From positions 14,239 through 78,238 of the forward strand of contig JAQWCW010000003.1 of NCBI GenBank assembly GCA_028705775.1: DNA of 64,000 bases. The letters run 5' to 3'. The position numbers were made by a program, and so were the translations under genes. The notes below the pieces were generated by a model that saw only the letters and a list, made by a program, of their open reading frames with translations, had not been told where the DNA came from and searched no databases. The stretch is from Eubacteriales bacterium (GTDB taxonomy: Bacteria; Bacillota; Clostridia; Christensenellales; Aristaeellaceae). Shown one piece after another: positions 135-44,943 of the stretch. Positions within the stretch are counted from its first letter, which is position 1. Every line of letters starts with the position of its first letter.

Positions 135-3719
<3,585 letters not shown>

Positions 3720-8408: not shown

Positions 8409-8623
8409 AAGCCTCCCTTGTGTAAGAACAGGTGGCACGGCGCAGCCGTGACGGAAGGATTGTCGGTTCGTTTGTCTTTAGTTTTCTCGCAAAAATATTG
8501 TTGAATAACAGGCACAAATCATTATATCACAAGAGTTTCCGACAATCCCTCAGGCGCTCCGCGCCAGCTCCCTTTGCACAAGGGAGCCTCCTTTGGTAAA
8601 CAGACTGCAGTCGCAGTCTGTTT
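8409..8623 (-). repeat. interspersed composite repeat, copy a (unit B, spacer, inverted unit A, GC hairpin)
   Basis: Unit B at 8409-8466. Unit A at 8539-8588. Hairpin AAACAGACTGCAGTCGCAGTCTGTTT at 8598-8623. Alignable with the copies at 15907, 44665 and 51252 in inverse orientation. Confidence 0.8.
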
Positions 8624-8697
8624 ATGATATAGTACTTTCGTGCCTGAGAATTATATAGCCAAACGAGAACTAACAATATCCGCTTCCCCTACACCCC

Positions 8698-8822
8698 TGC
8701 TCGCTCAAAACGCTTCGGATGCTAGGAGACAAGCTAAATGGCGAGGGAGTTTACTCGCGGGTAAATGACTGCCTCGGCTGTCGCGTATTGGGCATAAGCG
8801 ATAGGCGGTTTTTCAGCGAGCA
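8698..8822. repeat. palindromic ~125-bp element (module C) with terminal inverted repeats TGCTCGCT(C/G)AAAA
   Basis: TIRs at 8698-8710 and 8810-8822. The core GGAGTTTACTCGCGGGTAAATGACTGCCTCGGCTGTCGCGTA is shared with 51312-51442 in the opposite orientation. Confidence 0.7.
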
Positions 8823-8846
8823 GGAAGCGGCAAGTAAGAAGCAGGC

Positions 8847-9218
8847 TCATTCCGTCTTGCATAAAAAATACTGATTAATCCCATCCGTAATATCGCGGTA
8901 GCAGCTATTGACCTGCTCGAGCGATTCGTTTATATCCTTGAGTCTGCCGCCGCGGATTATGACGAGCAGCTGCCCGACGGAGTGCATAAGCGGCACAAAA
9001 CCCATATTTCCGGCAACGCCCTTGAGCGCGTGCGCCGCGGTAAAGGCTTCGTCCCACACGCCATGCTCAACGGCTATATTAAGCTCCTCGGTAGTTTTAT
9101 CGTCAAGGAAATCGGTAAGACATTCCGCATACAATTCCTCGTCGCCGCCGAGTCTTTTTATAGCGCCGTCAACATCGGTTTCCCTAAGCGCGAGCGCGTG
9201 CCGCTGACGATTATTCAT
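8847..9218 (-). CDS. stand-alone Hpt (histidine phosphotransfer) domain protein
   Basis: 123 aa from the internal ATG at 9218 (GGAGGGAGG RBS). Phospho-His motif AFTAAHALKGVAGNMG. Close paralogue of the 25002 gene. Confidence 0.85.
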   Translation of the reverse strand: MNNRQRHALALRETDVDGAIKRLGGDEELYAECLTDFLDDKTTEELNIAVEHGVWDEAFTAAHALKGVAGNMGFVPLMHSVGQLLVIIRGGRLKDINESLEQVNSCYRDITDGINQYFLCKTE

Positions 9219-9312
9219 AGGGAACGAACGCCTCCCTCCGCAAAAAATATACGATGGATTGCCAATACTGACGCAAAAATCACAGATGATTCGCGCCGCT
9301 GCAAACGCCGTA

Positions 9313-9681
9313 TCAGGACGGCTGCTCCGCTTTTTCGGCAATTTCGCGAAGCTTTTCAAGCTCCGCCGAAACCCTGACATACTCGCGCTCGGCGTCAGGG
9401 CGGCGTTTTGCCCTCAGCGCCTCGGTAAGCTCGCAGTCCGCCTCATAATACGGCGTAAGCCCGAGATTTCCCGAAAGCCCCTTCAAGGCGTGAGCGCAGA
9501 AGAACGCTTCATCAAGGCTGCCCTTTTCCATAGCCGCTTTGAGCGCCGAATGATTCGGCTCAGAAAGAAACGCGGAAAAGCAAATCACATACAGCTCATT
9601 GTTTCCCATAAACAGGTCTTCAATACCCTCGGCATCCACCCCGTATCCGGTAAGCAGCCCCATCAAAGTATTATACTCCAT
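9313..9681 (-). CDS. stand-alone Hpt domain protein
   Basis: 122 aa. Motif AFFCAHALKGLSGNLG. Starts 24 nt downstream of the giant GGDEF/EAL gene stop. Confidence 0.85.
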   Translation of the reverse strand: MEYNTLMGLLTGYGVDAEGIEDLFMGNNELYVICFSAFLSEPNHSALKAAMEKGSLDEAFFCAHALKGLSGNLGLTPYYEADCELTEALRAKRRPDAEREYVRVSAELEKLREIAEKAEQPS

Positions 9682-9705
9682 TTTATTCTCCGTTTCAGCA
9701 AAAAT

Positions 9706-15479: not shown

Positions 15480-15657
15480 CGTGCGCTCCCTTGCAAAACG
15501 CGCGGTGTGCGCAGGGCACAAACCGGCTATGCTTTATCTGAATGCGATAATTTTAACAATCTTACGGCAGAAATCTGAAAATTCAATAGGCAGGCGCCGC
15601 TTGGCTTGCAGGAACAGTGAGGGCATTCCCGACATATTCTTATCAGATGCTTTTTGT

Positions 15658-15686
15658 ATTATATCATAATTGTTCTCTGCCGACAA
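15658..15686 (-). promoter_or_regulatory. candidate sigma-A promoter for the giant REC-GGDEF-EAL gene
   Basis: On the minus strand: TTGTCG, 17 nt spacer, TATAAT, about 175 nt upstream of the ATG at 15479. Confidence 0.4.
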
Positions 15687-15906
15687 TATCCGCAGTATAT
15701 AATTGCAAAGTTTATTTATTTTCTATCATATTTCCGCAGTTAAGGAGGGAGAAAAAGGGGTGAAAAAAGAGAAGAAGGCGGAATAAAGTTGATTGCAAGG
15801 CGGGTAAAGGCGGGCGAAGAAGGAGCGCAAGCGCGGTCAGTACAAACGGAGAGGGAACGATTCAGGTAAGCGGAGCAGGAACGGCGAAGGAGGTTGGCGC
15901 GAGCAT

Positions 15907-16112
15907 AAACCGTCTGCACAAGCAGACGGTTTACTAAAAGAAGGCTCGTATGTAGTAAAGGGAGCTGGCGCGTAGCGCCTGAGGGATTGTCGTAAACGCT
16001 TGATATATAAGGGGTTGCGCCTACTATTCAACAGCATTCCTTGCGAGAATCCAACCGACAATCCTTCCGTCACGGCTACGCCGTGCCACCTGTTCTTGCA
16101 CAAGGGAGGCTT
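15907..16112 (+). repeat. interspersed composite repeat, copy b
   Basis: Hairpin AAACCGTCTGCACAAGCAGACGGTTT at 15907-15932. Unit A (inverted) at 15957-15992. Unit B at 16055-16112. Shared tail ATCCGGTATCGTTGCCGTACTG. Confidence 0.8.
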
Positions 16113-16488
16113 AATCCGGTATCGTTGCCGTACTGCGAAACAGTCTCTTGTTGGTTCGCGTTCCCCGTTCCATTCTCTCCACACAAAAACATATATGAAA
16201 ATATAATAATTCATCAATCATCTTATAAAAGCATTGATTTTGCGGTTCCTCTGGTGTAAAATTGCAATAGTCAATTAATCCACAAATTAACCGCGCAGGG
16301 CATTATCGGTAAAAACCATTATGTCAATGAGCGCGCGGCAAAGCCAAAGACGGTTTTGAGCAATAACAGGGCAGCGCAGGCAGCGCTTTTGCGCATGATT
16401 GGTATTTCCCGCGCAATCATTATCACGCGCAATCGGGATTCCGCCGTATTTTTTGGCGTTTCTCCGTCCAAACGGCGTTTCGCCATCA

Positions 16489-16620
16489 TTCGGCGCTCCG
16501 CCGCAAGCCCTTTTACCGCAGCCTCGTTCGGCGCTCCGCCGCAAGCCCTTTTACCGCAGCCTCGTTCGGCGCTCCGCCGCAAGCCCTTTTACCGCAGCCC
16601 CATTCGGCGCTCCGCCGTCC
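16489..16620. repeat. 38-bp tandem repeat, about 3.4 copies (TTCGGCGCTCCGCCGCAAGCCCTTTTACCGCAGCCTCG)
   Basis: Read directly. The 38-nt period is not a multiple of 3, so each copy falls in a different reading frame. Flanked by more degenerate related sequence over about 16400-16760. Confidence 0.85.
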
Positions 16621-16823
16621 GGACGGCATTCCGTCACCACACCTTTAACGCCGCCCCGCCCGCGCGCTGCCGCTTAATCGGCGTCTCACGCGCAACAGTT
16701 ATCCCCCATCCGGCGTTTCGTCCCCGTCCGGCGCTCTGCCGCGCCGCCCAATATTTATTACTCGGCATATCAGAAAAAGTTCGCGGGCAAGCATATGCCG
16801 GCGCGAAAAGCGAGGAACAGAAA

Positions 16824-18152
16824 GTGTCAGCGATTCCAGCAAGCAAAGAAATTTATCTGAACGAAACGGAAGTTAAGCCCAATCTGTACGCCTCGCGCGT
16901 GCTTGCGGGCATTGTCGGCGTCATCTGCATAGTTTTCGTGCTCAACATCACCGGAATATTCACCCTAGATTACATACTGGTATTCCTTTCCCTGATTGTC
17001 TCCGCCTCAATCTTCATAGCAATGCGCCTGCTGGTTCGCAATCCCGTAATGGTAGTAAAGCCCGTCACCAAATATATTATGCTCGCAATGGAGCTGCTGC
17101 TCGTTCTGACGGTTACGGTTCTGCTCAACGTTCATGCGGTTCTGGGCTTTGTGCTTCCCGTTCTGCTGGCTACGCAGTACCGCTCCTATAAATTTTCGCG
17201 CTGCGCGATTCTAGGCTCATGCCTTTGCTGCCTTGCAGCGCCGATATTTTCATACCTTCTTGAAACGTGGGATTTAATCTTCATGACGGGCTATATCGAA
17301 ACCTTCTGCCGCGTGTCGGTAAGCCCCGTGCCTGCCGCAGAAGGCAGCTTCCTCATTGCCGTATGGCAGATAACCCTTTACTGGTCAATGCCGCAGGCGC
17401 TGACGCTGCTCGCCTTTGGAATAATACTGCAATCCGTTACCAAAAACGGAATCGACAGCGTTCGGAATCATATGCGCGTAGCGGATTTGAGCGAGGATTT
17501 GAACAGGCAGCTGGGCAGCATAGTTTCGATGCAGGAAAAGGTGCTTTACTCGATGTCCGACATAATCGAAAACCGCGACATTGAAACGGGCAGCCATGTA
17601 AGACGCACAAGCGAGATTGTGCGCCTGCTCACAAACGCAATGCTGCGCGACGAGCAAAGCGGCGTTACGGAGGACTTTTGCAACTCCGTCGTCAAATGCG
17701 CGCCGATGCACGATTTGGGCAAGATAGCGATTCCCGACACGATTCTGAGAAAGCCCGGAAAGCTTACGCGCGAGGAATATGAAATCGTCAAGAAGCACCC
17801 TGAGAACAGCGCGAAGATAATCGAGCAGGCGCTTACGGGAATCGAGGACGAGCGCCTGATGAAGATTGCAAAGAACATAGCGCTTTACCATCACGAGCGG
17901 ATGGACGGCAAGGGCTACCCCTGCGGGCTGTGCGGCAAGGATATACCGCTTGAGGCGCGGATTATGGCAATCGCGGACGTATACGACGCGCTTGTCAGCG
18001 AGCGCTGTTACAAAGCCCCGATGGACGCGCGCGAGGCGTACATAACGATTGAGCAATCAATGGGAACGCAGTTCGACATCTCGCTCAACAAGTATTTCAT
18101 CGAGTGCAGGGAACAGATAGAAAGCTATTATTTTGCCAAAAAGTCCGCATGA
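16824..18152 (+). CDS. membrane-anchored HD-GYP domain c-di-GMP phosphodiesterase
   Basis: C-terminal HD-GYP motifs HDLGKIAIPD and HHERMDGKGYP. Multi-TM N-terminal region. Start placed at the in-frame GTG at 16824 (GAGGAA RBS), because the ORF call from 16356 runs through the non-coding tandem repeat. The start is uncertain. Confidence 0.8.
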   Translation: MSAIPASKEIYLNETEVKPNLYASRVLAGIVGVICIVFVLNITGIFTLDYILVFLSLIVSASIFIAMRLLVRNPVMVVKPVTKYIMLAMELLLVLTVTVLLNVHAVLGFVLPVLLATQYRSYKFSRCAILGSCLCCLAAPIFSYLLETWDLIFMTGYIETFCRVSVSPVPAAEGSFLIAVWQITLYWSMPQALTLLAFGIILQSVTKNGIDSVRNHMRVADLSEDLNRQLGSIVSMQEKVLYSMSDIIENRDIETGSHVRRTSEIVRLLTNAMLRDEQSGVTEDFCNSVVKCAPMHDLGKIAIPDTILRKPGKLTREEYEIVKKHPENSAKIIEQALTGIEDERLMKIAKNIALYHHERMDGKGYPCGLCGKDIPLEARIMAIADVYDALVSERCYKAPMDAREAYITIEQSMGTQFDISLNKYFIECREQIESYYFAKKSA

Positions 18153-18343
18153 GCGCGCAATCAGCCAAAGGGAAGCGCAAAGCTCTTTCAAAAATCTATA
18201 ATCTGATATATAATACGCGTATACAAGCCGGCATTGAATAGCTCTATCCGCAAAAGAGCGCGGGTAAATCGCATTCTGCCTTCCGTACCATTCGCAAGCA
18301 CGATTTAACGGCGTCTGACGAGTCGTCGGCGCGAAAGGATTAT

Positions 18344-21300
18344 ATGCAGCCGCAGAGGGTGAAAAACCAAAAAGCAAATACGGGAGAAAAGACGGCGCAC
18401 GGCGCAAGAATTCCGAAAATCCTTGTCGCGCCTATTTTGTCGTTCCTGCTAATCTTTGCGTCGATTGCGTTTACGGGCGTCGGCAACGTAAGGCACGCGA
18501 GCGAAACGGCGCGCGAAGTGCTTATGGCGTCCGCAAAGGAGCAGTCCTCCGTGCTTTCCGCAACATGGCGCGGGCAGGTTGACACGCTCGCCGCCGTTGC
18601 AATCGAGCTTGCGGAATACGATGAAATCAATATGGAAGCGGCGCTGAAAAGGCTTCTCCGCCTGCAGCGCGAGGGCGATTACAGCCGCCTCATGTTTTCC
18701 TTGGGCGACGGAATCGCGCATAGCGCAGACGGCTCTGTATTTGACATATCCTCGCGCGGCTACCTGAAGCGCGCAATGAGCGGAAAGTGGGCTGTCGAGC
18801 GCATTCCGGAAGGAATGGACGGAACGGGAAGCTTTATTGCGCTTGCCGTTCCTATAATAAAGGACGATAAGATTATCGGCGCCGTCGAGGGCATTTACGG
18901 CGAGGAGCGCCTTTCTAAGCTGATTATTCCGGAGGTGTTCGGCGGCGAGGCGTACTCCGTAATATGCAGGGAGGACGGAACGGTCTCCATTGAAACAGAA
19001 AATCCCAGCTTCGGCGGCGAGAATATGCTTGCGGTAATCGAGGAAGCGATGAACGGCAGGCAGGGCAGCTTTTCCGCAATCAGGGAGGACGTAGCAAGCG
19101 GGCGGCAGGGTACGTTCACCGTGCGCCTTTCGGGAAGAAAGCTCTACGCCGCATATGTTCCGCTCGACTCGCGCTCAGCCGGCGGCGAAAGGCTTATGCT
19201 TTTCAGCTTCGTTCCCGCAGCGCAGGTTGACGCGCCCGCAATAAGGCAGACCTATTACAACGTGCTTATGCTTATAACCGCGCTGGTCGGCGGCGCGATT
19301 ACCTTCATATGGCTGCTCAGGCATCAGAAAAAAACGGAGCTACGCCTTCGGGAGGAACGCGACCACCTGATGGTTATCGAAAAGCAGAACCGGATAACGA
19401 TGGAAAAATCTGGTCTGATTATGGCAAGATACGATTTGAAAACCGGCACGGTATGCGGCGAGTCCGCGCTTGTGTCGGCGCTAGGCTATCAGAGCGGGGT
19501 AATGCACACGCCGGATTCCTTTATTTCAGGCGGCGTTGTCGCGCCCGAAAGCATAGAGGAGCTGCGCAAATTCTACGCAAATCTCCGCGCCGGCAAGCTC
19601 GGAACAGCCGTAGTATCGCTCAAAACGCCCGACAGCGGCTTCCGCTGGTTCTCAATAGACGCGAGCTTTGCCGAGGATTCGGAGGGCAAGCCGTATCAGG
19701 CAATACTAATCATGCGCGACGTTACCGAAAAGCAGGAAAAGGAAGCGCTCTATCAGAACTGGCTCAAGACAATCCGGCAGAAGGACGTGCGGAGCTACTC
19801 GCTTTTCAGGTGCAATCTGAGCAAGGGCGACTCCTTCAGCGCGTCGGAGGGCAGCCTGCTTACCATCTGCTTCTCCCCGGGGCCGCACACCTTCAACGAG
19901 CGCACGGACGAATATGCGGGCAGGTTCGTTCACATTGACGATTACGACGCATACAAGGCGCTTCTGAACTCCGAAAACCTGCTTGCGAGCTATTATCGCG
20001 GCAAAACGAAGCATACAATGGAATACAGGGAAAACACGGGCGCGGAGAAATACCGCTGGCTTCGCGTTACAATCGAAACCCTGAAATACCCTGTCGGCGA
20101 CGATATCGAAGTGCTGCTGATGTACGACGATATCGACGAAAAAAAGCGCGCGGAGCTGAAGGAAAAGGAAAAGGCGTCCATCGACCCGATGACGGGCGTG
20201 CTGAACCGCTCCGCGTTCGTTGAGCGCCTTTCCGCAGTTTTCACGGATAAGGAAAAAACCTCATACGCCGTCATCCTAATCGACCTTGACGGCTTCAAGC
20301 AGATTAACGATTCGTTCGGGCACGCGGTGGGCGACCAAGCGCTTTACGAGGTCGGGCAGTCGCTTCTCTCCGTCGTTTCAAGCGGCGATATTCTGGGCAG
20401 AATCGGCGGCGACGAGTTCATGATTTTTGCCCGCGGAATCGAAAGCCAAGCCGTAGCGGAAAAGCGCGCAATTCAGATTCAGGCGCTTCTGCGCAGGGCG
20501 TACAGCCTTGACGTGAACCTTTCCGCGAGCATTGGAATCGCGTTTTACCCCTCGGACGGCAGCGATTTCAAAACGCTGTACCGCAATGCGGATATAGCGC
20601 TTTATGCCGCAAAGCAGAGCGGAAGGGATGCCTTCTCCTTCTATATAGGCGAAAATCCGCCGAATAGGCAAAGCGCCATATCGCCGGCAACTCAGCTGTA
20701 CCGCGGCAGCGAGAAGCGAAGAATTATTGTATACGAAAAGGACGAGGAAGTAATCGACGAGATTACGGGGCTGTACGCCGATAATTACAAAATCGAGATT
20801 TGCGAGGACGAGAGGGAGCTTCTTTACCGCCTGCGCAAGTACGGAATGGCGATTTCGGCAGTCCTTCTCAGCCTTGACGTTCAGGACACTGACGGCTTCT
20901 CCCTCCTTGCCGATTTGCGCAGAAACGATACCTCCGGCTCCGTTCCGATAGTTGTTATTAGCGCGGAGCGCGGGCAATGCGTTGCGGCGCTTCGCTGCGG
21001 CGCGCGCGATTATATACCAAAGCCAATAAACCGCGACGTGCTCAGGGCGCGCGTTGAGGCGGCGATTGCTCAGGTTGACAATGAGCGCCTGCGCGCGCAG
21101 AACGCGTATCTGCAAACGCAGAGCGGCGAGCGCTCCAAATACAGGACGGTTTTTGAAAACACGGGAACGCTCGTTGTGGAATACGACTGGCTCACCGGTG
21201 CCTTTACCTACGACCCCGATATGTCGCAGAAGATTTGCGGCAGATATGACTCGCGCTCGCTGTGGATGATTCTGCTTTCCGACATGGTTGCGGACGCGAT

Positions 21301-23194
21301 GGACGTAAAGCGCCTTCAGGAGTCGGTGCATGATTTGGCGACGGACAGAAAGGCGCAGAGCGCAAAGAAGGACGTTCGCCTGAAAACCCCCGACGGCTCC
21401 CGCCATTGGTTTGCCGTTACGATGTTCAAGCGCATAAACGAGCTGAAGCTGACCAGCCGGATTATAATGACCTTTGCCGACATAAACGACAACGTGCTGA
21501 CGGAGGACAGGCTTCGCTATCAGGCGGAGCATGACGCGCTTACGGGGCTTTACAACCGCAGCGCTTTCCTTGCCGCTGCCGAAATGGTGATTCGCACAGG
21601 CAGCGAAAACACCTATGTGCTTATGTGTACGGATATTGACAATTTCCGCTTCATCAACGAGCGCTTCGGACGGGACGAGGGCGACAGGCTGCTCAAATAC
21701 TCCGCTGAAAAGCTGCGCACGCATACGGAGAGCGTAAACGGGCTTGCGGGGCGCCTGAGCAACGACGTTTTCGCCATACTGGTCAGGAATACGCCGACCG
21801 TTTTCACAACCGCGGAGCAGATTATACTGAACTTCTTCAAGGACTATCCGCTCAAAACGAACCTGACCTGCCGCGTAGGCGCATATGTGATAAACGATAA
21901 GGAAATGACCGTCGACACGATGCTCGACCATGCCGCGACAGCAAAGGAATCAATACGCGGCAAGTACGGAAAGCGCCTTGCGCTTTTCGACGAGAGCATG
22001 AACGAGCAGGCGCTTCTGGAAAAAGACATAGCCGACCATATGGAGGCGGCGCTTGCGGAAAAGCAGTTCGAGGTTTACATTCAGCCGCAGTTCCATCACG
22101 CGAGCGGAGCAATCGTCGGCGCGGAGGCGCTTGTACGATGGCTGCGCCCCGACCGCGGTCTGGTATCCCCCGCCGCGTTCATTCCCGTGTTTGAAAAGAA
22201 CGGCTTTATCGTAAAGCTTGACGAATACGTATGGGAAAAAACCGCCGAGCTGATGAGCGAATGGATTCGCAAGGGCATGAATGTCGTCCCCGTATCGGTG
22301 AACGTATCGCGCGAGGACACAAAGGATTCCGAGCTTTGCGCGCGCCTGAGGCGGATAGTCGAAAAGCACAGTATTCCCAAGGATTTCTTCCGTATAGAAA
22401 TTACGGAAAGCCTTTTCGCGGACGACGCGGAGCGCCTGCGCACCGTTGTTGACGAGCTGCACGAAGCGGGCTTCCTTGTGGAAATGGACGATTTCGGAAG
22501 CGGCTATTCCTCGTTCAATATACTCAAGGATATTCCGGTTGACATACTCAAGCTCGATATGCGCTTCTTATCCGGCGAGGATAACCTCGGTCGCGGCGGA
22601 ATGATTGTCGGCGCGGTTCTGAGAATGTCGCGCTGGCTCGGAATACCCGTTATAGCGGAGGGCGTTGAGAAAAAGCATCAGGCGGATTCCCTTCTGAGCG
22701 TCGGCTGCCCGACAATTCAGGGCTACATCTATGAAAAACCGATGCCCGCAGAGGAATACGCAAAGCGCTTCCTTGAAAGCAACGCCGCGCGCGCCCTGCC
22801 TGAAAACAACATTGAAACGCAGCTTGACACGCACAGCTTCTGGGATTCCACCTCGCTCGACTCGCGCCTGTTCAACCTGTATATAGGGCCTGCCGCCGTG
22901 GTTGAATACCATATGGGCGAATATGAATTCCTGAGGATGAACAAGCGCTTCATGGATTTGATGATGATAGACGACAATGCGGCAATGCCCGCCTGCCTGC
23001 TCATGCGCTTTTCGCAGGAGGACAGACCGGCAATCAAGAGCGCGGTTCTCAGCCTTATCGAAACGGGCAAAGAAACGTCGTTCAGCGCGCGCGCCCATCT
23101 GAGCGACGGCAGCGAGAAGCGTCTCAGCGTCGCCCTGCGCCTGATTGCAAAGAGCGAGGACAGGGCGCTGATATTCGCCGCGCTGGATAAATAG
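18344..23194 (+). CDS. giant TM/Cache-like sensor-PAS-GGDEF-REC-PAS-like-GGDEF(degenerate)-EAL-PAS c-di-GMP signalling protein
   Basis: 1616-aa ORF. N-terminal TM helix, an extracytoplasmic Cache-like region, then a second TM. Intact RIGGDEF. Internal REC (LLSLDVQDTDG..IPKP). Degenerate RLSNDVF GGDEF. EAL motifs EALVRW, EITES, DDFGSGYSS, EGVE, QGY. Confidence 0.9.
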   Translation: MQPQRVKNQKANTGEKTAHGARIPKILVAPILSFLLIFASIAFTGVGNVRHASETAREVLMASAKEQSSVLSATWRGQVDTLAAVAIELAEYDEINMEAALKRLLRLQREGDYSRLMFSLGDGIAHSADGSVFDISSRGYLKRAMSGKWAVERIPEGMDGTGSFIALAVPIIKDDKIIGAVEGIYGEERLSKLIIPEVFGGEAYSVICREDGTVSIETENPSFGGENMLAVIEEAMNGRQGSFSAIREDVASGRQGTFTVRLSGRKLYAAYVPLDSRSAGGERLMLFSFVPAAQVDAPAIRQTYYNVLMLITALVGGAITFIWLLRHQKKTELRLREERDHLMVIEKQNRITMEKSGLIMARYDLKTGTVCGESALVSALGYQSGVMHTPDSFISGGVVAPESIEELRKFYANLRAGKLGTAVVSLKTPDSGFRWFSIDASFAEDSEGKPYQAILIMRDVTEKQEKEALYQNWLKTIRQKDVRSYSLFRCNLSKGDSFSASEGSLLTICFSPGPHTFNERTDEYAGRFVHIDDYDAYKALLNSENLLASYYRGKTKHTMEYRENTGAEKYRWLRVTIETLKYPVGDDIEVLLMYDDIDEKKRAELKEKEKASIDPMTGVLNRSAFVERLSAVFTDKEKTSYAVILIDLDGFKQINDSFGHAVGDQALYEVGQSLLSVVSSGDILGRIGGDEFMIFARGIESQAVAEKRAIQIQALLRRAYSLDVNLSASIGIAFYPSDGSDFKTLYRNADIALYAAKQSGRDAFSFYIGENPPNRQSAISPATQLYRGSEKRRIIVYEKDEEVIDEITGLYADNYKIEICEDERELLYRLRKYGMAISAVLLSLDVQDTDGFSLLADLRRNDTSGSVPIVVISAERGQCVAALRCGARDYIPKPINRDVLRARVEAAIAQVDNERLRAQNAYLQTQSGERSKYRTVFENTGTLVVEYDWLTGAFTYDPDMSQKICGRYDSRSLWMILLSDMVADAMDVKRLQESVHDLATDRKAQSAKKDVRLKTPDGSRHWFAVTMFKRINELKLTSRIIMTFADINDNVLTEDRLRYQAEHDALTGLYNRSAFLAAAEMVIRTGSENTYVLMCTDIDNFRFINERFGRDEGDRLLKYSAEKLRTHTESVNGLAGRLSNDVFAILVRNTPTVFTTAEQIILNFFKDYPLKTNLTCRVGAYVINDKEMTVDTMLDHAATAKESIRGKYGKRLALFDESMNEQALLEKDIADHMEAALAEKQFEVYIQPQFHHASGAIVGAEALVRWLRPDRGLVSPAAFIPVFEKNGFIVKLDEYVWEKTAELMSEWIRKGMNVVPVSVNVSREDTKDSELCARLRRIVEKHSIPKDFFRIEITESLFADDAERLRTVVDELHEAGFLVEMDDFGSGYSSFNILKDIPVDILKLDMRFLSGEDNLGRGGMIVGAVLRMSRWLGIPVIAEGVEKKHQADSLLSVGCPTIQGYIYEKPMPAEEYAKRFLESNAARALPENNIETQLDTHSFWDSTSLDSRLFNLYIGPAAVVEYHMGEYEFLRMNKRFMDLMMIDDNAAMPACLLMRFSQEDRPAIKSAVLSLIETGKETSFSARAHLSDGSEKRLSVALRLIAKSEDRALIFAALDK

Positions 23195-25001: not shown

Positions 25002-25382
25002 ATGACGCATGAGCAGCGTAAGGCGCTGGTTCGGATAGACACAGATATATCGGGAGTTGAGCGGCGCTTTTGCGGCGATGACGCGCTGTACATATCGTGC
25101 CTTAGCTTATTCCTCAGCGATTCAACGATGGAGCAGCTTACGAGGGCGCTCAGCCTTCGGCTGTGGGACGACGCGTTTACCGCCGCGCACGCGCTTAAAG
25201 GGCTTGCGGGCAATATGGGCTTCGTTCCGCTGATGCACTCCACGGGGCAGCTGGTCGCCCTGATTCGCGGAGGCAGAACCCTTGAAATCAGCGACGCGCT
25301 TCTGCGCGTCAGAATGGACTACGCGGAAATAACCGATGTAATAAATCAAAACTTCATATGCGCGATTACCGAAGGAGAGTAG
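25002..25382 (+). CDS. stand-alone Hpt domain protein
   Basis: 126 aa. Motif AFTAAHALKGLAGNMG. Paralogue of the 8847-9218 gene. TAG stop. Confidence 0.85.
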   Translation: MTHEQRKALVRIDTDISGVERRFCGDDALYISCLSLFLSDSTMEQLTRALSLRLWDDAFTAAHALKGLAGNMGFVPLMHSTGQLVALIRGGRTLEISDALLRVRMDYAEITDVINQNFICAITEGE

Positions 25383-25387
25383 CGAAA

Positions 25388-28300
25388 ATGAAAAACGATG
25401 GACTAAAGCACGGATATAAATACATTGTCGGAATAGGCGCGTCTGCGGGCGGGCTTGAGGCGCTGCAAAAGCTGCTGAGCGCGCTGCCCTCCAACACGGG
25501 CTTCCCCTTCATCGTGATTCAGCACCTCTCTCCCGATTATAAAAGCCTGCTCGGTGAAATACTGGGCAAGTACACGGATATGCCCGTTATTCAGGCGGAG
25601 GATAACATGACGGTGCTGCCCAACCGCGTGCATATCATTCAGCCGGGAAAGAATATGCGGATAGAAAGCGGAAGGCTCAAGCTGGTTGACCAGATTCCGA
25701 AGGAGCTTAACCTGCCTATCGACATTTTCTTCCGCTCCCTTGCCGAGGACGCGGGCACAAACGCAATCGCAATAGTCCTTTCCGGCACAGGCTCTGACGG
25801 AACGAACGGAATCAAGTCAATCAAGGAAAACGAGGGAATGGTTCTCGTTCAGGATTTGGAAACGGCAAAGTTCGACGGAATGCCGCGCTCCGCTATGCGG
25901 ACGGGGCTTGTTGACGCGCAGCTTTCCCCTGAGGAAATAGCGATAGAGCTTGAGCATATTTCCGGACTTCCGCTTGCGGCGGAGCGCGGCAAAACGCTTC
26001 AGGAGATTGACGCGGAGCTGATGCGAAAGGTTTACGCCGTTCTCAAAAAGGTCAGCAACGTTAATTTCACGCATTATAAGCAGACGACAATCCTGCGCCG
26101 GATGGAGCGCAGAATGATGATAACGCATAAGGAGCAGCTCTCCGACTATGTGGACTACCTGCTCGAATCGCCCGAGGAGGTTCGGGTGCTTTCCAAGGAG
26201 GTTCTGATTGGCGTTACGAGCTTCTTCCGTGACCCTGATTATTTCCAGCTTTTGAAGGACAAGGCGATAACAGATATAGTCAGCCGCTCGCAGGGCGAGG
26301 AGCCGATTCGCGTATGGGTCGCCGGCTGCTCGACGGGCGAGGAGGCGTACTCAATCGCCATCCTTTTCAGCGAGGTAATGGATAGCATGAAGCTCAAGCG
26401 CGAGCTTAAAATCTTCGCTACCGACCTTGACACGGAGGCGATAACGACCGCGAGCAAGGGGCTTTACGGCGACAATATCGTGGACGCGGTTTCCCCCTCG
26501 CGCCTCAGCAAGTATTTCACGCGCAAGAACAACGCATATCTTGTGAACCGCGAAATACGCAAAATGATAGTTTTTTCTCCACACAACGTGTTTCAGGACC
26601 CGCCGTTTGGCAGGCTTGACATGATTTCGTGCCGCAATATGCTCATATATTTCCAGCCCGTCCTGCAAAACGACCTTTTCGCAATTTTCCATCAGGCGCT
26701 CAAGGACGGCGGATACCTGTTCCTAGGCAAGTCCGAGGCAATCGGCTCATACACGGACGCCTTCCCCATCGTCGACGCGGCGACAAAGATTTTCGGGCAT
26801 TGCGCCGACGCGAAAATTGCCGGCTCAAAGAAGGTTCCGTACCTGCAGACGACCTATATGGACGAGGAGCTTTCGGGCGATTCGGGGCTTTCAGCCTTCT
26901 CGCTTCAAATGCGCAGCGAGCGCTCCGCCGAGTCGTCGGCAGTATCAATCGATAACTCAATCCTTGAGCAGTTCCTGCCCGCAACGGTTGTAATAAACGA
27001 GAAAAATGAGCTTATACACACCTACGGCGACACCTCGAACGTAATGCATTTCTCCCTCGGAAGATATTCGAGCAATCTTTTCGATTTGATAACGGAGGCG
27101 CTGAAAATACCCGTTTCCACGCTTCTTAAGGAATCGCGCGACAAGAAGCGAAAGGCGCAGTACAGGGACATCCGCTTTACGGGCGAAAGGGAGAACTCCG
27201 TAATCGACCTTACCGTTGCCCCCGCGAGCCATAATAACAGCGTATCCGAAAACCTGTACGCAATCGTGTTTGCGCAGACGCGGCAGGATAAAGCCGATAC
27301 GGACTCCGTTGTGTACGACGTCGACAGGGTTTCCTCGCAGCGCATAACGGATTTGGAGCAGGAGCTGGTTGAAAAGCAGACGAAGCTTGACCAGAGCGTA
27401 TCCGAGCAGGAAACGGTTAACGAGGAATTGCAGGCGGCGAACGAGGAGCTGCTTACCGCAAACGAGGAGCTGCAAAGCTCCAATGAGGAGCTGCAATCCG
27501 TAAACGAGGAGCTGTACACGGTCAACTCCGAATATCAGCAGAAGCTGACGGAGCTTTCCGATTTGAACGACGATATCGCAAACTTCCTTTCCTCAACGCT
27601 CACGGGCATAATTTTCGTAGACAACAAGCTCAACATCCGCCGCTATACGGATTATGTAACCTCCGAATTCTCCGTTATGGACCATGATATAGGCCGCTCG
27701 CTCGCCTTTATTTCCTATCATTTCCCTGCGGTTGATATAACGGAAATATGCACGAACGTGCTTAAAACGCTGATTCCCAACGAGCGGGAAATAACGACGA
27801 ACAGCGGCAAATCCTTCTTCATGCGCGTCGCGCCGTACCGCTCGACGGAAAACAAAATTCTCGGCTGCGTAATAACCCTTATGGATATTACGAAGCAGAA
27901 GCAGAATCAGGAAAGCCTGCTCAGCACGGAAAAGCGCCTTTCAATGGCGCAGCAGGCAAGCGACGCAAAGAGCGATTACCTCTCGCGCATCGCCCACGAA
28001 ATCCACTCGCCGATGACCTCGCTTATGGGGCTTGTCAGGAACGCCCGCGCGCTCGCAACCGACGACGCGCAGAAGGCGGAAATCGACAAGATTGCCCAGA
28101 CAATCGACTATATGACCTCAATCGTCACGGATATTTCCGAAGCGTCCGTATGCGAGCGTCTTTCCAAGGAGCAGATTACCGAGCCGTTCGTTTTGCGCGA
28201 TATGCTGGAAAGCGTGAGCGAGGCGGTGCGCCCCAAGCTTGACGAGGCAGGCGTTTCCTATAAGCTGCTGCTTGACGAGGGCTTCAACCCCTCCTATATC

Positions 28301-29086
28301 GGCAGCAGGGCGAAGCTGCAGCAGATTCTGCTCGGCTTCCTCAGCTCCTCCCTCCGCCATACCGAAAAGGGCGACTCGATTACGCTTCGCGTGTTTGAGG
28401 AACTGGGGCGGAGCGAAAAGGCAAAGCTGTGCCTTATCGTTTCCGACACGGGCAGCTATATAAAAAAGGAAAACCTCGACAAGCTTTTCAAGCCGTTTTC
28501 CGATATCGCGGAGGAAAACAGAACGCCGAGCAACGCATGGCTCGGGCTTTCCACCGCGTATAACGAAATCATATCACTGGGCGGCAGCGTAAGCGCAAAA
28601 AGCGAGGAAGGCAAGGGCAGCACCTTTACAATCACCGTGCTTCTGGACAGGCAGACGGAGGCGGACAAGGAGCAGAGGGAGCAGGCGTTCAGCAATAATC
28701 TTTCGGGCAAAAACGTGCTGATTGCCGAGGACAACGCGCTGAACCGCACAATCTTGGGCGCGCTTATCAAAAACGAGGGAATGACCTACGCGGAGGCGCA
28801 GGACGGAGAGGAAGCCGTGAAGAAATTCACGGACGAGCCTGCCGGAACCTTCGACTGCATACTGATGGACATGAGAATGCCGAAGCTTGACGGAATCCGC
28901 GCAACGGCGAAGATTCGCGCAAGCGGCAAGCCGGACGCGAAAACCGTACCGATTATCGGCGTTTCCGCAAACGGCTTTGTGGACGATATAAGAAAAGCGC
29001 AGGACGCGGGAGTCAACGAATACACAACGAAACCGATTTACCGCGAAAATCTGCTTACCGCAATAAGGAAGCTGATTAAGCGCTGA
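25388..29086 (+). CDS. CheB methylesterase-CheR methyltransferase-coiled coil-PAS-HisKA-HATPase-REC hybrid sensor kinase
   Basis: CheB block GASAGGLEALQ..VIQHL..LSGTGSDG. CheR block FFRDPDYF..VWVAGCSTGEEAYS..FATDLD. Heptad segment EELQAANEELLTANEELQSSNEELQSVNEEL. H-box DYLSRIAHEIHSPM. G-box GKGSTFTI. C-terminal REC (LMDMRMPKLDG..TKP). ATG at 25388 follows a GAAGGAGAG RBS. Confidence 0.9.
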   Translation: MKNDGLKHGYKYIVGIGASAGGLEALQKLLSALPSNTGFPFIVIQHLSPDYKSLLGEILGKYTDMPVIQAEDNMTVLPNRVHIIQPGKNMRIESGRLKLVDQIPKELNLPIDIFFRSLAEDAGTNAIAIVLSGTGSDGTNGIKSIKENEGMVLVQDLETAKFDGMPRSAMRTGLVDAQLSPEEIAIELEHISGLPLAAERGKTLQEIDAELMRKVYAVLKKVSNVNFTHYKQTTILRRMERRMMITHKEQLSDYVDYLLESPEEVRVLSKEVLIGVTSFFRDPDYFQLLKDKAITDIVSRSQGEEPIRVWVAGCSTGEEAYSIAILFSEVMDSMKLKRELKIFATDLDTEAITTASKGLYGDNIVDAVSPSRLSKYFTRKNNAYLVNREIRKMIVFSPHNVFQDPPFGRLDMISCRNMLIYFQPVLQNDLFAIFHQALKDGGYLFLGKSEAIGSYTDAFPIVDAATKIFGHCADAKIAGSKKVPYLQTTYMDEELSGDSGLSAFSLQMRSERSAESSAVSIDNSILEQFLPATVVINEKNELIHTYGDTSNVMHFSLGRYSSNLFDLITEALKIPVSTLLKESRDKKRKAQYRDIRFTGERENSVIDLTVAPASHNNSVSENLYAIVFAQTRQDKADTDSVVYDVDRVSSQRITDLEQELVEKQTKLDQSVSEQETVNEELQAANEELLTANEELQSSNEELQSVNEELYTVNSEYQQKLTELSDLNDDIANFLSSTLTGIIFVDNKLNIRRYTDYVTSEFSVMDHDIGRSLAFISYHFPAVDITEICTNVLKTLIPNEREITTNSGKSFFMRVAPYRSTENKILGCVITLMDITKQKQNQESLLSTEKRLSMAQQASDAKSDYLSRIAHEIHSPMTSLMGLVRNARALATDDAQKAEIDKIAQTIDYMTSIVTDISEASVCERLSKEQITEPFVLRDMLESVSEAVRPKLDEAGVSYKLLLDEGFNPSYIGSRAKLQQILLGFLSSSLRHTEKGDSITLRVFEELGRSEKAKLCLIVSDTGSYIKKENLDKLFKPFSDIAEENRTPSNAWLGLSTAYNEIISLGGSVSAKSEEGKGSTFTITVLLDRQTEADKEQREQAFSNNLSGKNVLIAEDNALNRTILGALIKNEGMTYAEAQDGEEAVKKFTDEPAGTFDCILMDMRMPKLDGIRATAKIRASGKPDAKTVPIIGVSANGFVDDIRKAQDAGVNEYTTKPIYRENLLTAIRKLIKR

Positions 29087-29101: not shown

Positions 29102-29461
29102 ATGGACGCAGTAATGCTTGCGGAATACGGAATAGACTACGAGAAGGCGCTTGGCAGCTGCATGGGCAACGAAGCGTTCCTGCGCAAGATTCTGACCATG
29201 TATCTTGACGACGTAAGCTTCGGAACGGCTGAAAGCGCGTTTAAGAAGCGCGACTGCGCCGCGCTGTTTTTAGCCGTGCATGAGCTGAAGGGCGTTGCGG
29301 GCAACGCGGGCTTTGTGGGACTTTACGCCGCGGTTCTGCCGCTTGTTGAGCTTACGCGCTCGGGAAAATGCGACTGGAACAAGGCGACAGAGCTGTTTGA
29401 AAATCTCAAGAAGGCGTACGAGCGCACGATAGCGGGAATACTGCGCTCAATTCCCGAATAA
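29102..29461 (+). CDS. stand-alone Hpt domain protein
   Basis: 119 aa from the ATG at 29102 (GGGAGGA RBS). Motif LFLAVHELKGVAGNAG. Starts 16 nt after the kinase stop. Confidence 0.8.
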   Translation: MDAVMLAEYGIDYEKALGSCMGNEAFLRKILTMYLDDVSFGTAESAFKKRDCAALFLAVHELKGVAGNAGFVGLYAAVLPLVELTRSGKCDWNKATELFENLKKAYERTIAGILRSIPE

Positions 29462-29549: not shown

Positions 29550-30929
29550 ATGAATATCAAAAAATTGTCCCTGCTCGCGCTTATCGCGGCGCTTATTCTG
29601 GCAATCTCAGGCTGCACGGGAAACGTACCGAAAGCTCCGGAAGTAACCGCCGAGCCGATTACGATTACCGTTGCGGGCGGCTGGGAGGATTGCCGCGCAA
29701 TCGACGAGGTGGCGCGCAAGTTTACCGAAAAGTATCCGAACTGCACGGTGCGCTATGAGTACCTTCAGGATTACAACAACTCGCTTGTAAAGCGCATGAC
29801 GGGCGACAGCCCTGTCGACGTGTTCTTTACGTCGAATATTCAGGCGGATTCGCCGCTTCTTCCGTATGCGCTCAACCTCAACGGGCGGGAGGATTTGAAT
29901 CTTACAGACGTGTTTTACGGGCTGACGCAGAATTTCACCTTCCGCGAGAACGGCGAAATATCCGATAGGCTTTACGCAGTGCCGGTCGGCGCGGATATGC
30001 GCGGGCTTTTCGTCAATAAAACGCTGCTTGCCTCGCTCGGGCTTACCGTTCCTGCCAATAAGGCGTCGCTGCTTAACGCCTGCAAGGTTCTCAAGGAAAA
30101 CGGCTATATGCCGCTGCAGGGCAATCCCAATGATTTTTAGCAGACGCTGCTTTATCCGTGGGTCTGCAATATCATCGTCAACTCGCCAAAGGAGGCGGGC
30201 GTGCGCGAGGCGGTCGAAAAGCGCTCAGCCGGCATAAGCGAGCTTTTCCGCGAGCCGTTTGAGCTTATGTACACGATTGTCGAAAACGATTATTACAACT
30301 ATAAGCACGAGCAGGACGTAAACGGGCTGTTCGTTGACAGCGCCGATATTGATTACGCCCGCTATTTCCTCAACATAAAGAAAACGGACAGCGGCTATGA
30401 AAAGGCGGACGATGTCGGCGTTATCGCCTTCATGCCCTCCCCGATGTCGCGCACAAGCGTAATGGAAAAAGCGCGCGAGGACTACCACAGCAATATTGAA
30501 TATGTGTTCATTGCCGCGCCTGTCAGCGACGAGGGCGGCTTTGCATACCTTTCCCCCGGTCACGGGCTTGCAATCAACAAGGAGTCCCCGAACGTCGATT
30601 GGGGCGTCCGCTTCATGGATTTCCTCTTTCAGCCGGAAAACAGCGAGCTTTTCGCAAGCGAGTTCCACACAATCCCGAACACGAAGAACGCGGTTTCCTA
30701 CATCCGCAAGCTTTTCGACGTTCCGGACAACCGCATTTCCGAGCTGGGTCAGGTTACGTTCGGCTATGATTTCTACAAGCCAATCACCACAACCCTGCGC
30801 GATATTTCAAAGGGCAACAACCCGAAATATATGCAGACAGCCGAGGACGGCTCCGTATCCCTCTACCCGCTTGACTACTACATGAATCAGCTAGAGGAAA
30901 GTTTGAAATCAGATGAGCAACAGCAGTAA
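29550..30929 (+). pseudogene. ABC-type extracellular solute-binding lipoprotein (family 1) interrupted by a single in-frame TAG at 30138-30140
   Basis: Lipobox LILAISGC. ORFs 29550-30140 and 30201-30929 share one frame. The 20 codons between them are open (QTLLYPWVCNIIVNSPKEAG). No other disruption. Confidence 0.8.
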
Positions 30930-33525
30930 TAAACCCGAAATAAAAGAACGGCTGCATAAGCGCGGGCAGGGGCTTATTGTAATAATCCTCAACCTGGTTC
31001 TGCTTTCGTGCGCGATTCTCTTTTACACAATGTACACGAGCGCGTACGAAAAGCGGCTGAACGATGAGAATTTAGGCAATATAGCCAACATGAACCGCTC
31101 CGCTGCAATGAACGCTACGGCGCTGATTGAGAGCATGAACATAAAGCTCGACGATTTGGCGCAGTACGTCAAAAAGCACGCCCTCGACCTTGAGGGCGCG
31201 CTTGAAATGATTGACGACGCGAACTCAAGCAGCGAAAGGTATTTCGAGCTAATCGGGTAGGACGCGAAGGGCTATCTTGCCGAGCGCGGCGAGGACGGGC
31301 TTTTCCCGCAGCTTGATTATTCCCACACTTCCTATGCGCCGCTGCAAAGGATTTTCAAGGAAGAATATCCGGACGGAATCGGCAAAATCCGCTTTGCGCC
31401 GGAATACACTGACGGCGGAAGAAGCGCCGAAAAATTCTTCGCAATATACAGGCGCATAATAATCAAGGACGGCGATAAGGACGTTCCCTACACTATTATG
31501 CTCGCAACGAGAGCAAAAAGCGTGCTAGAGGTGCTTAACGCGCAGGACGATTATCTGGGTCAGTCCACAGTGCTTATCGACGACGCGGGCAACTATATCG
31601 TCAGCAACATCGACTTCAAGTCGAGCAACTTCTTCCAGTACCTGTATGTGTACAACAACCTGTCGATGGACAAGCGCAACGCGATAATAAACGAAGTGAA
31701 GGAAAAAGGCGCGGGCGAATTGTACTACAAGAATTCAGGCAACAAGATAGAGGACTGCGTTTACCGCTACGAAAGGATTGAGAACAGCGGCTGGTACTGC
31801 ATAACCGCCATTCCGCTTTCCTCCTTCCACTCCCCCGTGTTCAACATGAGCTATGCAATTTATGCCGTAGCCGCGCTGCTTCTGCTCCTGCTGACGGATT
31901 TGCTGTGGCTGCAGGGAATGAACCGCCGCCTCCGCGTGAGTATGCTCAGGGAAAAGGAAGCGAGCGCCGCAAAAGGCAGCTTCATGTCCCGTATGTCGCA
32001 TGAAATACGCACTCCGCTAAACGCGGTAATAGGCTACAACACGATTGCGCGCAACGAAATGAGCGACGCAAACGACGACGCGTCGCGCAGGCAGGCGGAG
32101 ATGAAGGTGCTGGACTGCCTTACAAAGAGCGATATCGCGTCAAGGCATCTGCTGACGATAATCAACGACGTTCTGGATATGTCCGCAATCGAAAGCGGTA
32201 AGATTAAGGTTTCCGTTGAGCGCTTCGATTTCAAGGGGCTGATAAGCTCAATAACCACCATTTTCTATTCGCAGGCGCGCGCAAAGGGCGTCGAGCTTGA
32301 GGTTGTGTTTGACGCGCTTACCGAGGAATGGTATATGGGCGACCAGCTCAGGGTAAACCAAGTGCTGACAAACCTGCTTTCAAACGCAATCAAGTTCACT
32401 CCGGAGGGCGGAAAAGTAAGGCTCACAATCAGCCTTGCGGAAAACTCCGAAAAGAAGGCGCGCATTCACTTTGCCGTGTCCGATACGGGAATCGGAATGA
32501 CAAAGGAATACCTCAGCCACATCTTCGTGCCGTTTGAGCAGGCGGATTCCTCAATCTCGCGGCGCTTCGGCGGAACGGGGCTTGGGCTTTCCATAACAAA
32601 GAACCTGATTGACCTTATGCACGGAACAATCGAAGTTTCGAGCGAGCCGAGCAAGGGCTCACAGTTTGACGTTGAGCTGACCTTCGGGCGCACGGCGCAG
32701 CCCTCGCAGGAGGAAGCCTACGATTTCAGCTATATCAAGGCGCTCGTTGTGGACGACGACGCAAGCACCCGCGATTACATCAAGCTGCTGTTCGGGCGCT
32801 GCGGCGCAAGATGCTCCGCCGTCGCTTCGGGCGACGCGGCTGTGGACGCTTTCAAGGCGGCGCAGGCGATGGGCGAAAGCTATACAATGTGCCTTGTGGA
32901 CTGGCGTATGCCGCAAATGGACGGAATCGACACAATCAAGCGTCTGCGCGAGGTTTCGGAAAAGGATATACCAATCGTGGTGCTTACGGCATACGATTAC
33001 TCGGAGCTTGCGGAAAAAGCGGAGGACGTTGGCATAAAGAAGTTCATCGCAAAGCCGCTTTTCCAGTCAACGCTCTTTGACCTGCTCGCCAATCTTTCGG
33101 GCGGAAAAGCTCACCTTAACCTGCAAAAGAACAAGGTGTACGATTTCAAGGGTCGGCGCGTGCTGCTTGCCGAGGACAACGCAATGAACATGGAAATAGC
33201 CAAAAAAATAATGGAGTCCGCGGGTCTTAACGTTGACGAGGCATGGAACGGGCGCGAGGCTGTTGAAAAGTTCAAGGCGGCGCAGGCGGGCTATTATATG
33301 GCAATACTGATGGACGTGCATATGCCGGAAATGAACGGGCATGACGCGGCGCGGACAATCCGCGCAATGGAGCATCCCGAAGCAAAAACGATTCCCATAA
33401 TCGCAATGACAGCGGACGCGTTTGCCGAAAACGTTGCCGAGGCAAAGGCGGCGGGAATGAACGAGCATATCGCAAAGCCAATCGACATTCCGACGCTGTT
33501 TTCCACTTTGAGCAGATATGCGTGA
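30913..33525 (+). pseudogene. TM/Cache-like sensor hybrid histidine kinase with two C-terminal REC domains, interrupted by a single in-frame TAG at 31258-31260
   Basis: ORFs 30913-31260 and 31498-33525 share one frame, and 31261-31497 is open (DAKGYLAERGEDGLF...). H-box SHEIRTPLNAVIGY. N/G boxes LSNAIKFT and GGTGLGLSI. REC1 has VDWRMPQMDG..AKP. REC2 has LMDVHMPEMNG..AKP. The start overlaps the SBP gene by 17 nt. Confidence 0.8.
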
Positions 33526-33545: not shown

Positions 33546-34082
33546 CTACGGAATAAGCTTCATATCGCGTCCGAGCATATCGTCGCTCGGGCGCGTGTTT
33601 TCGTTTCGGAACATAACGTAGTCAATCGGAATTCCCTTTTTCTCTGCCATTTTGATGGTCAGGAAGGTTCCGCCGTATCTCCCTGTGTATAAGGCGATAA
33701 GCCTGTCGCTTTTCTCTATCATCCATCTGTCCCGCCGCTGCATACAGCCGTCCGAATATCTTTCGGCAAGCACGGTAACGCTGTCGGCGCTCCGGATTAT
33801 ATCAAAATAATTCCGCCTGTCGCTTTCGCGCCAGCGCGCGTACTGACCCGAACAGGGAATCGCGCAATGCAGCCTTACGTCCCCGTGAAGCGCGCGAAAG
33901 GCGATTACCTCCCGCGCCGCCCATTGGTCAACGCCAAGCGCCATTCCGGATATGAAATTTCGGCAGCCGAGGCTGTAAGCCCGCTCAATCGCCTGATACA
34001 ACAGGCGCTTTAGCAGCAAAACGTCGTCGCCGCATATATGCAGGTGCTGCGGGCGATGACCCGTAAACGCGCAAGTCAGCAT
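33546..34082 (-). CDS. DUF1273/YpsA-like SLOG family protein
   Basis: 178 aa. N-terminal CAFTGHRP motif and GMALGVDQWAA block typical of the family. GGAGGAAAT RBS. Confidence 0.7.
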   Translation of the reverse strand: MLTCAFTGHRPQHLHICGDDVLLLKRLLYQAIERAYSLGCRNFISGMALGVDQWAAREVIAFRALHGDVRLHCAIPCSGQYARWRESDRRNYFDIIRSADSVTVLAERYSDGCMQRRDRWMIEKSDRLIALYTGRYGGTFLTIKMAEKKGIPIDYVMFRNENTRPSDDMLGRDMKLIP

Positions 34083-44642: not shown

Positions 44643-44664
44643 AAGTTCGATAGCGTTATATCAT

Positions 44665-44869
44665 AAACAGACTGTAGCCACAGTCTGTTTACCAAAGAAA
44701 GGCTCCCTTGTGCAAAGGGAGCTGGCACGAAGTGCCTGAGGGATTGTATGAAAGGCTTGATATATAAGGATTTACGCCTGTTATTCAAAAACATTTTTGC
44801 GAGAATCCCAACGACAATCCTTCCGTCACGGCTATGCCGTGCCACCTGTTCTTGCACAAGGGAGGCTTA
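44665..44869 (+). repeat. interspersed composite repeat, copy c (best preserved)
   Basis: Hairpin AAACAGACTGTAGCCACAGTCTGTTT at 44665-44690. Unit A (inverted) at about 44701-44747. Spacer CTTGATATATAAGGATTTACGCCTGTTATTCAAAAACATTTTTGCGAGAA. Unit B at about 44811-44869. Confidence 0.8.
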
Positions 44870-44943
44870 ATCCGGTATCGTTGCCGTACTGATAAAACAG
44901 CCTCTTGTCGCTTTGCGTTTGCTCCGCGCTGCCGCTGCAATCG

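Follow-up and report, generated by a model that had tools for sequence, protein, structure and literature searches.

We describe a sensory locus in a 64,000-nucleotide stretch of DNA from an uncultured Eubacteriales bacterium (GenBank assembly GCA_028705775.1, contig JAQWCW010000003.1, positions 14,239 to 78,238; hereafter referred to as the window), in which the gene for a hybrid sensor histidine kinase is disrupted by an in-frame TAG codon. The kinase gene, as delimited by translation, Pfam matches, alignment of homologues and the fold of a homologue, extends between positions 30913 and 33525 on the plus strand. When translated in one frame it comprises 870 sense codons and a single internal stop, the TAG at 31258-31260 (codon 116; ...GAG CTA ATC GGG TAG GAC GCG AAG GGC...), which confirms the position given in a first-pass annotation of the same sequence. 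Immediately upstream and on the same strand lies a gene for a lipoprotein solute-binding protein (SBP; 29550-30929), assigned to the SBP_bac_1/8 class on the basis of translation and Pfam and presumed to be the co-sensor of the kinase. A second in-frame TAG, at codon 197 (30138-30140), is the sole internal stop of the SBP gene; it corresponds to a segregating change of TCG (Ser) to TAG, and the SBP_bac_8 profile match (residues 54-382) spans it. The SBP gene ends with TAA at 30927-30929 and overlaps by 17 nucleotides with the kinase gene, which starts with the ATG at 30913. The two adjacent genes had been proposed to be coupled, and the overlap agrees with this; likewise, the earlier statement holds that each of these neighbours in the module has a single amber codon as its only lesion.

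The predicted kinase is composed of a first transmembrane helix (TM1), an extracellular sensor with a dCache fold, a second transmembrane helix (TM2), HisKA, HATPase_c and two receiver domains. The list of open reading frames (ORFs) divides the gene into a 115-residue N-terminal fragment (30913-31257, plus strand), which covers a cytoplasmic tail and TM1 and reaches into the sensor, and the rest of the frame (31261-33525, plus strand), with 754 codons up to the TGA at 33523. All the Pfam matches, i.e. HisKA, HATPase_c and two copies of Response_reg, are located after the TAG, and under normal termination the 115-residue fragment is the sole kinase product expected. Intact homologues align without a break across the stop with 46-57% identity, and because of this continuity we consider the frame to be a single gene, as opposed to a frame that is open by chance. 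The first-pass annotation had likewise argued for one gene that is interrupted within its sensor domain, and the alignment through the stop bears this out.

With respect to the sensor, Pfam gave no match in this region of the window kinase, and sub-threshold matches to dCache_1 (PF02743; E values of at least 0.003, below the gathering score) were obtained for five of 17 homologues. A profile search of PDB sequences with the kinase matched the HisKA region only and did not name the sensor; of the Pfam, NCBIfam and PDB sequence searches none named the domain, and the fold search alone did. An AlphaFold2 model was made for P0001, an intact homologue that is 57% identical, with the window fragments included in the alignment, and the fold assigned to the window sensor is by homology via this model. 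The model (mean predicted local distance difference test score 75) shows TM1 followed by a long helix, two PAS-like alpha/beta modules and TM2. When compared with the PDB using Foldseek, its top 50 matches were almost all dCache ligand-binding domains (E down to 5e-10), including TlpA, PctA/B/C/D, Tlp1/3, Mlp24/37 and the HK1S-Z kinases. The model supports that the sensor is a dCache domain by fold, and it places the TAG in the membrane-distal module. The designation "Cache-type" used in the first-pass annotation is not supported by Pfam, where the window protein is without a match, and is supported by the fold.

To address how the two TAG codons are distributed we turned to public sequences. 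The truncated kinase product (P0003) is encoded on four contigs (L001-L004) from four other samples, with 99.91-99.99% identity to the window across 10-12 kb. Each of the four has the kinase TAG, and so do three NCBI "Eubacteriales bacterium" metagenome-assembled genomes (MAGs), in each of which the kinase was found by exact-sequence look-ups to be split into 115 and 675 residues. At the SBP site, TAG is present in the window and in L003, and TCG (Ser) in L001, L002 and L004; among the three MAGs, one has the intact 459-residue SBP (also present in ENA contigs) and two have it split into 196 and 242 residues. The SBP TAG is a derived C to A substitution that segregates inside a near-clonal population. 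The carriers of the kinase TAG differ by approximately 10 single nucleotide polymorphisms (SNPs) per 12 kb, i.e. ≈0.1%, and since all copies belong to one near-clonal cluster, the occurrence of the kinase TAG in every sampled copy does not have to mean that it is old. Judging from its distribution, it predates the common ancestor of the sampled population, which is itself very recent. In the two stretches compared, the coding SNPs among the strains were approximately 10 nonsynonymous, six synonymous and two nonsense, which is close to an unfiltered mutation spectrum. The first-pass annotation had reasoned that long-standing pseudogenes would also accumulate frameshifts; because the lesions are young, this argument does not apply here.

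No sister strain with an intact kinase gene was found, and a protein search, a scan of GTDB genomes and a scan of JGI metagenomes gave no intermediate relatives (70-98% identity), only sequences that were either ≥99% or ≤65% identical. Because no such intermediates turned up, we infer the age of the kinase TAG and its ancestral codon indirectly. In 12 intact orthologues from reference genomes the site is variable and never TAG, with AGC, AGT or TCT (Ser; six of the 12), GGC or GGG (Gly), GCA or GCG (Ala), or CGG (Arg). TCG (Ser) is a plausible ancestral codon, although CGG (Arg) is found in the nearest relative, L007.

Other signalling genes in the window and in its sister haplotypes also carry lesions. 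On the minus strand, a -1 frameshift near 15020, within a T-run, divides a very large gene, which encodes a protein with REC, GGDEF, EAL, several PAS, GGDEF and REC domains, into two parts (14994-15521 and 9706-15117). As a result, a receiver domain and the first portion of a GGDEF domain are parted from the remaining ≈1,800 residues (GGDEF-EAL-PAS-GGDEF-REC). The DNA reads GCCGCCTTTTTGAGATGG, and ...AAFFEMVSEMV... would be restored by one added T. All ten public contigs that carry the gene share the frameshift, which is thus either a pseudogenising lesion that has become fixed or a slippery site. Moreover, a 1616-residue PAS-GGDEF-REC-EAL gene (18344-23194, plus strand), which is intact in the window, has a TGG to TGA change (W149*) at 18788-18790 only in a sister haplotype represented by contigs L167 and L168, and these originate from the samples with an intact SBP gene (ERZ27298659 and ERZ27298658). 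In total, the signalling genes of this 64-kb stretch have four lesions, spread over three haplotypes of a near-clonal population.

Over 7994-22479, contig L166 of one NCBI MAG matches the window at 100% identity. The SBP gene of that MAG is intact, and the MAG appears to have neither the SBP TAG nor the GGDEF-EAL TGA. On this ground the lesions can be arranged in a simple tree, where an ancestor with the kinase TAG and the frameshift would have given rise to one branch that added the SBP TAG and another that added the GGDEF-EAL TGA. The distribution thus suggests that the kinase was probably lost first and its partner SBP later. The earlier proposal of a recent double knockout of the module fits these data; the shared cause that went with it does not, since the hits were sequential and independent, with the kinase TAG in all sampled genomes and the SBP TAG in some.

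Lesions were also observed among more distant relatives. In L006 (ERZ27277086 k141_225160), an orthologue with 61% identity has a lone in-frame TAG (1024-1026) elsewhere in the sensor domain, where it replaces a conserved Lys (TAL*HFDVY compared to TALKHFALY). In L011 (Lachnospiraceae MAG, CAZWXS010000093.1), a TGA (5190-5192) replaces a conserved Trp in HATPase_c (...GGMLELY*ERTELKD...) in an otherwise open kinase frame, and with 41 contigs on record for the resulting 496-residue truncated product, P0002, the nonsense allele is widespread in its species. The orthologous module of L007 carries a frameshift with a small duplication. Finally, in a low-GC relative, L005 (ERZ4240422 NODE_7073), a deletion of approximately 1 kb near 4989 removes the C-terminus of the SBP, TM1 and half of the sensor, such that SBP residue ≈330 is joined out of frame to kinase residue ≈200; the coverage of this contig is low (3.7x) and a misassembly is possible.

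Taken together, our data argue that the kinase TAG is, very probably, an ordinary and recent nonsense mutation that disables an SBP-dependent hybrid sensor kinase, and that TAG is not decoded in any special way. From the architecture and from what is known about SBP-stimulated kinases, the surface-exposed lipoprotein SBP of an intact module would bind a ligand, probably a carbohydrate, and the ligand-bound SBP would dock on the extracellular dCache domain of the kinase, which would autophosphorylate and relay the phosphate via its receiver domains and the adjacent Hpt protein (see below). With the TAG in place, translation is predicted to end after 115 residues, no membrane-inserted sensor kinase would be made, and the gene would be a young pseudogene. 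Loss of the kinase would then have deprived the SBP of its signalling role and removed the selection on it, after which the SBP gene would have decayed; one sub-lineage has gained the TCG to TAG nonsense mutation. Both TAG codons would in this way belong to a broader, ongoing build-up of varied disabling mutations in the signalling genes of this near-clonal population.

Three points weigh against this interpretation. The kinase frame is pristine apart from the TAG, with the H-box, the N and G boxes and the receiver aspartates intact, and it gives no positive evidence of prolonged decay. Both TAG codons are at Ser positions, as judged from the sister strains for the SBP and from half of the 12 orthologues for the kinase, which is what a Ser-inserting suppressor would predict. 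In addition, three of the nonsense lesions in this gene family are TAG; as to this point, TAG is the stop most easily reached from the G/C-ending codons favoured by this genome.

The alternative that fares best is that a truncated or split product is functional. Translation would then restart at the ATG at 31498, which is the first in-frame start past the TAG (80 codons downstream), or at the GTG at 31522, to give a protein of 667-675 residues that retains half of the sensor and all that follows it (TM2, kinase core and two receivers). This protein might work without ligand as a kinase or phosphatase, perhaps in combination with the 115-residue fragment. The long intact ORF after the TAG, with all its catalytic motifs, speaks in favour of this possibility, as does its annotation by gene callers and NCBI; public records have a 115-residue "hypothetical protein" and a 675- or 667-residue "response regulator" in place of the kinase. 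Against it, inspection of the upstream sequences revealed no Shine-Dalgarno motif before either start. A product initiated at 31498 would be without TM1 and half of the Cache domain and hence unable to sense and, according to the topology of the model, ≈110 residues of a half Cache domain would need to pass through the membrane with no signal sequence. The later loss of the partner SBP also fits a dead module. Two truncated homologues, P0005 and P0007, start in the same alignment column as the truncated window ORF, and a programmed feature common to the three was considered and rejected after inspection of the DNA: the upstream lesions of P0005 and P0007 are unrelated (a TAG in place of Lys, and a deletion), and the shared column reflects the choice by the gene caller of a conserved Val/GTG codon after these lesions. 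Overall, we regard a functional truncated kinase as unlikely.

The second alternative, that the TAG codons are read through, was raised in the first-pass annotation, which suggested amber suppression or conditional read-through. A suppressor tRNA elsewhere in the genome or in a phage (e.g. one accepting Ser and having a CUA anticodon), or context-dependent leaky termination, would allow full-length kinase and SBP to be made, at least conditionally. Apart from the Ser positions and the otherwise unharmed kinase frame, this idea draws on the lone in-frame TAG in the related kinase of L006 and on the occurrence in Clostridia of Ser-accepting allo-tRNAs, which suppress amber codons when artificially given a CUA anticodon (PMC5389517). 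However, the natural allo-tRNAs described in that paper decode UAA or sense codons, not UAG, and the amber-decoding versions are engineered (PMC5389517). Furthermore, TAG functions as a terminator in the window, where a gene call based on codon usage gave ≈42 genes: four intact genes of ≈40 (≈10%) end in TAG at their natural C-termini, namely those encoding the 1616-residue GGDEF-EAL protein, an Hpt protein, an NAGPA-domain protein and YpsA. In the NAGPA-domain protein the Pfam domain ends three residues before the TAG, and in three of the four genes a back-up in-frame stop follows within two to five codons. Internal TAG codons are confined to the SBP and kinase genes among the ≈42; a third in-frame TAG, at 1419 on the plus strand, was discarded as lying in an antisense shadow of a pyruvate:ferredoxin oxidoreductase gene (135-3707, minus strand).

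Nor did other searches favour read-through. No tRNA gene was detected in the 64-kb window using ARAGORN and Rfam, and the window as a whole gave no Rfam match. The RNA following each TAG was predicted to fold no better than shuffled controls (z = -1.1 and +0.2), and the TAG positions are not conserved in the orthologues. The same population also holds TGA-nonsense and frameshift lesions, at a rate similar to that of TAG, which leaves nothing specific to TAG to be explained. The first-pass annotation had named decay of the module by varied lesions in relatives as evidence against read-through, and such decay is what we observe: L006 has a TAG elsewhere, L011 a TGA, L007 a frameshift and L005 a deletion. 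We therefore consider suppression or read-through to be improbable. Its more specific form, in which the lineage has a Ser-inserting amber suppressor (a tRNA-Ser or an allo-tRNA with a CUA anticodon) in its genome or in a resident phage, would explain the Ser positions of both TAG codons and the otherwise intact kinase frame. It would also make the TCG to TAG change nearly silent and leave the SBP-kinase module expressed, at a reduced level or conditionally; we find this form more doubtful still.

Two further alternatives carry next to no weight. The presence of two in-frame TAG codons within 1.2 kb could point to TAG being a sense codon in this lineage, through a changed genetic code or pyrrolysine. 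This is scarcely credible given the use of TAG as a terminator, the lack of other internal TAG codons among the ≈42 genes, and the TCG/TAG polymorphism within 99.9% identical strains, which is a signature of mutation; with respect to pyrrolysine, neither of the two genes, one coding for an SBP and the other for a histidine kinase, encodes a methylamine methyltransferase, and the genes annotated in the 64-kb window include no pyl genes. A sequencing or assembly artefact in this one assembly was considered since the source is metagenomic; no supporting evidence for it was found, and the identical TAG in assemblies from at least four different samples and projects (ERZ27298659, ERZ27298658, ERZ926043/ERR1193299 and SRR22315502) and in three NCBI MAGs renders it practically negligible.

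If the kinase TAG is an ordinary nonsense mutation, as we favour, the locus is best compared with unitary pseudogenes that arise from single nonsense mutations in bacterial sensory genes. The likeness includes one premature stop in an otherwise intact ORF, an intact allele or a sense codon in close relatives, normal use of the stop codon elsewhere, and functionally linked neighbouring genes that are struck one after another. We see no essential difference from such pseudogenes; only the local density of lesions is unusual. Natural recoding, as exemplified by pyrrolysine at UAG in methylamine methyltransferases and by TAG-recoded gut phages with suppressor tRNAs, shares with the locus an in-frame TAG in an otherwise intact frame. 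Unlike in natural recoding, the TAG position is not conserved, TAG is still a terminator, only two genes are concerned and one of the TAG codons is polymorphic with TCG; neither a suppressor tRNA nor pyl genes were found within the 64-kb window.

Known sensory systems offer a framework for the intact module. Sensor kinases that are stimulated by SBPs have been reviewed and include LuxP-LuxQ, HptA-HptS, TorT-TorS and XylFII-LytS (PMC8050422), and CuaD belongs to a "three-component" system of Ruminiclostridium (PMC10384115). As for SBP-stimulated kinases, the SBP gene in the window is directly beside the kinase gene and not beside ABC permease genes; the neighbours of the SBP gene are the Hpt and kinase genes, with neither permease nor ATPase genes of that kind nearby. 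The window kinase resembles LuxQ and HptS in having a bimodular dCache-like extracellular domain as its sensor, and LuxQ and TorS in being a hybrid kinase with a separate Hpt protein nearby. The window SBP differs in being of the SBP_bac_1/8 class (carbohydrate type) and not Peripla_BP_4, Peripla_BP_1 or SBP_bac_11. Other differences are the two receiver domains of the window kinase, the lack of a visible cognate DNA-binding regulator near the pair, and the fact that the module in the window is broken. According to NCBIfam, the kinase core is closest to TorS, BarA and LuxQ, yet far below the cut-offs. The module is an uncharacterised relative of the SBP-stimulated kinases and not a member of a named family. 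The pairing itself is conserved; among intact orthologous loci, which were retrieved by the GTDB genome scan and come from Oscillospiraceae, Lachnospiraceae, Christensenellaceae and other MAGs, the SBP gene is immediately upstream of the kinase gene in 11 of 12.

The genes surrounding the pair are intact. Directly upstream of the SBP gene is a gene for a small Hpt phosphotransfer protein (29102-29461, plus strand; Pfam Hpt, E 6e-5, just under the gathering score), which is a likely phosphorelay partner of hybrid kinases, and this is preceded by a gene for a hybrid signalling protein with the Pfam architecture CheB-CheR-PAS-HisKA-HATPase-REC (25358-29086, plus strand). On the other side, a YpsA/SLOG gene (33546-34082, minus strand) is convergent with the kinase gene, and its terminal TAG served as a control for TAG as a normal terminator.

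The window is unusually rich in phosphorelay and cyclic di-GMP genes: besides the CheB-CheR-kinase fusion it encodes at least three GGDEF/EAL proteins and one HD-GYP-like HD_5 protein. It contains four small Hpt ORFs within 64 kb, of which two (8847-9380 and 9313-9681, minus strand) form a tandem pair and two (25002-25382 and 29102-29461, plus strand) are single, and each of them adjoins a giant hybrid signalling protein. An intergenic repeat of approximately 250 nucleotides is present in three copies with 82-85% identity (8385-8575, minus strand; 15904-16162 and 44662-44919, plus strand) and opens with a perfect hairpin (CATAAACAGACTGCA...GCAGTCTGTTTAC). Two of the copies flank a large GGDEF/EAL-Hpt block as an inverted pair, and the third is 3' of another GGDEF gene. 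The repeat has no match in Rfam and could be an element resembling a miniature inverted-repeat transposable element, or an unknown RNA. In the intergenic region downstream of a LacI-family gene, a GGTACGGAAACGCGTTGA-like unit is repeated in tandem and in degenerate form at 7981-8190, and a 92-nucleotide duplication with 87% identity is part of this array. Finally, two short genes at 60575-61407 (minus strand), one of which has an HNH-like motif (CEICDF...HH...CANCH), form a small island without Pfam-annotated neighbours that may be a mobile or defence remnant.

The kinase lesion as such is already public, as split ORFs in an uncultured "Eubacteriales" MAG, and as an ordinary pseudogene it matters little. 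Its value is that the locus shows, in a clear-cut case, how a sensory module decays in an ordered manner, where the kinase is hit in all strains, the SBP in one sub-lineage and a different signalling gene in another. It also illustrates that, for lone in-frame stops in MAGs, sister assemblies should be checked before recoding is invoked. Moreover, the analysis defines an uncharacterised and widely conserved Clostridia module, which consists of an SBP_bac_1/8 lipoprotein and a dCache hybrid kinase and has been lost repeatedly. This repeated loss hints that the ligand is dispensable, or that loss of the module is advantageous, in the sampled habitats.

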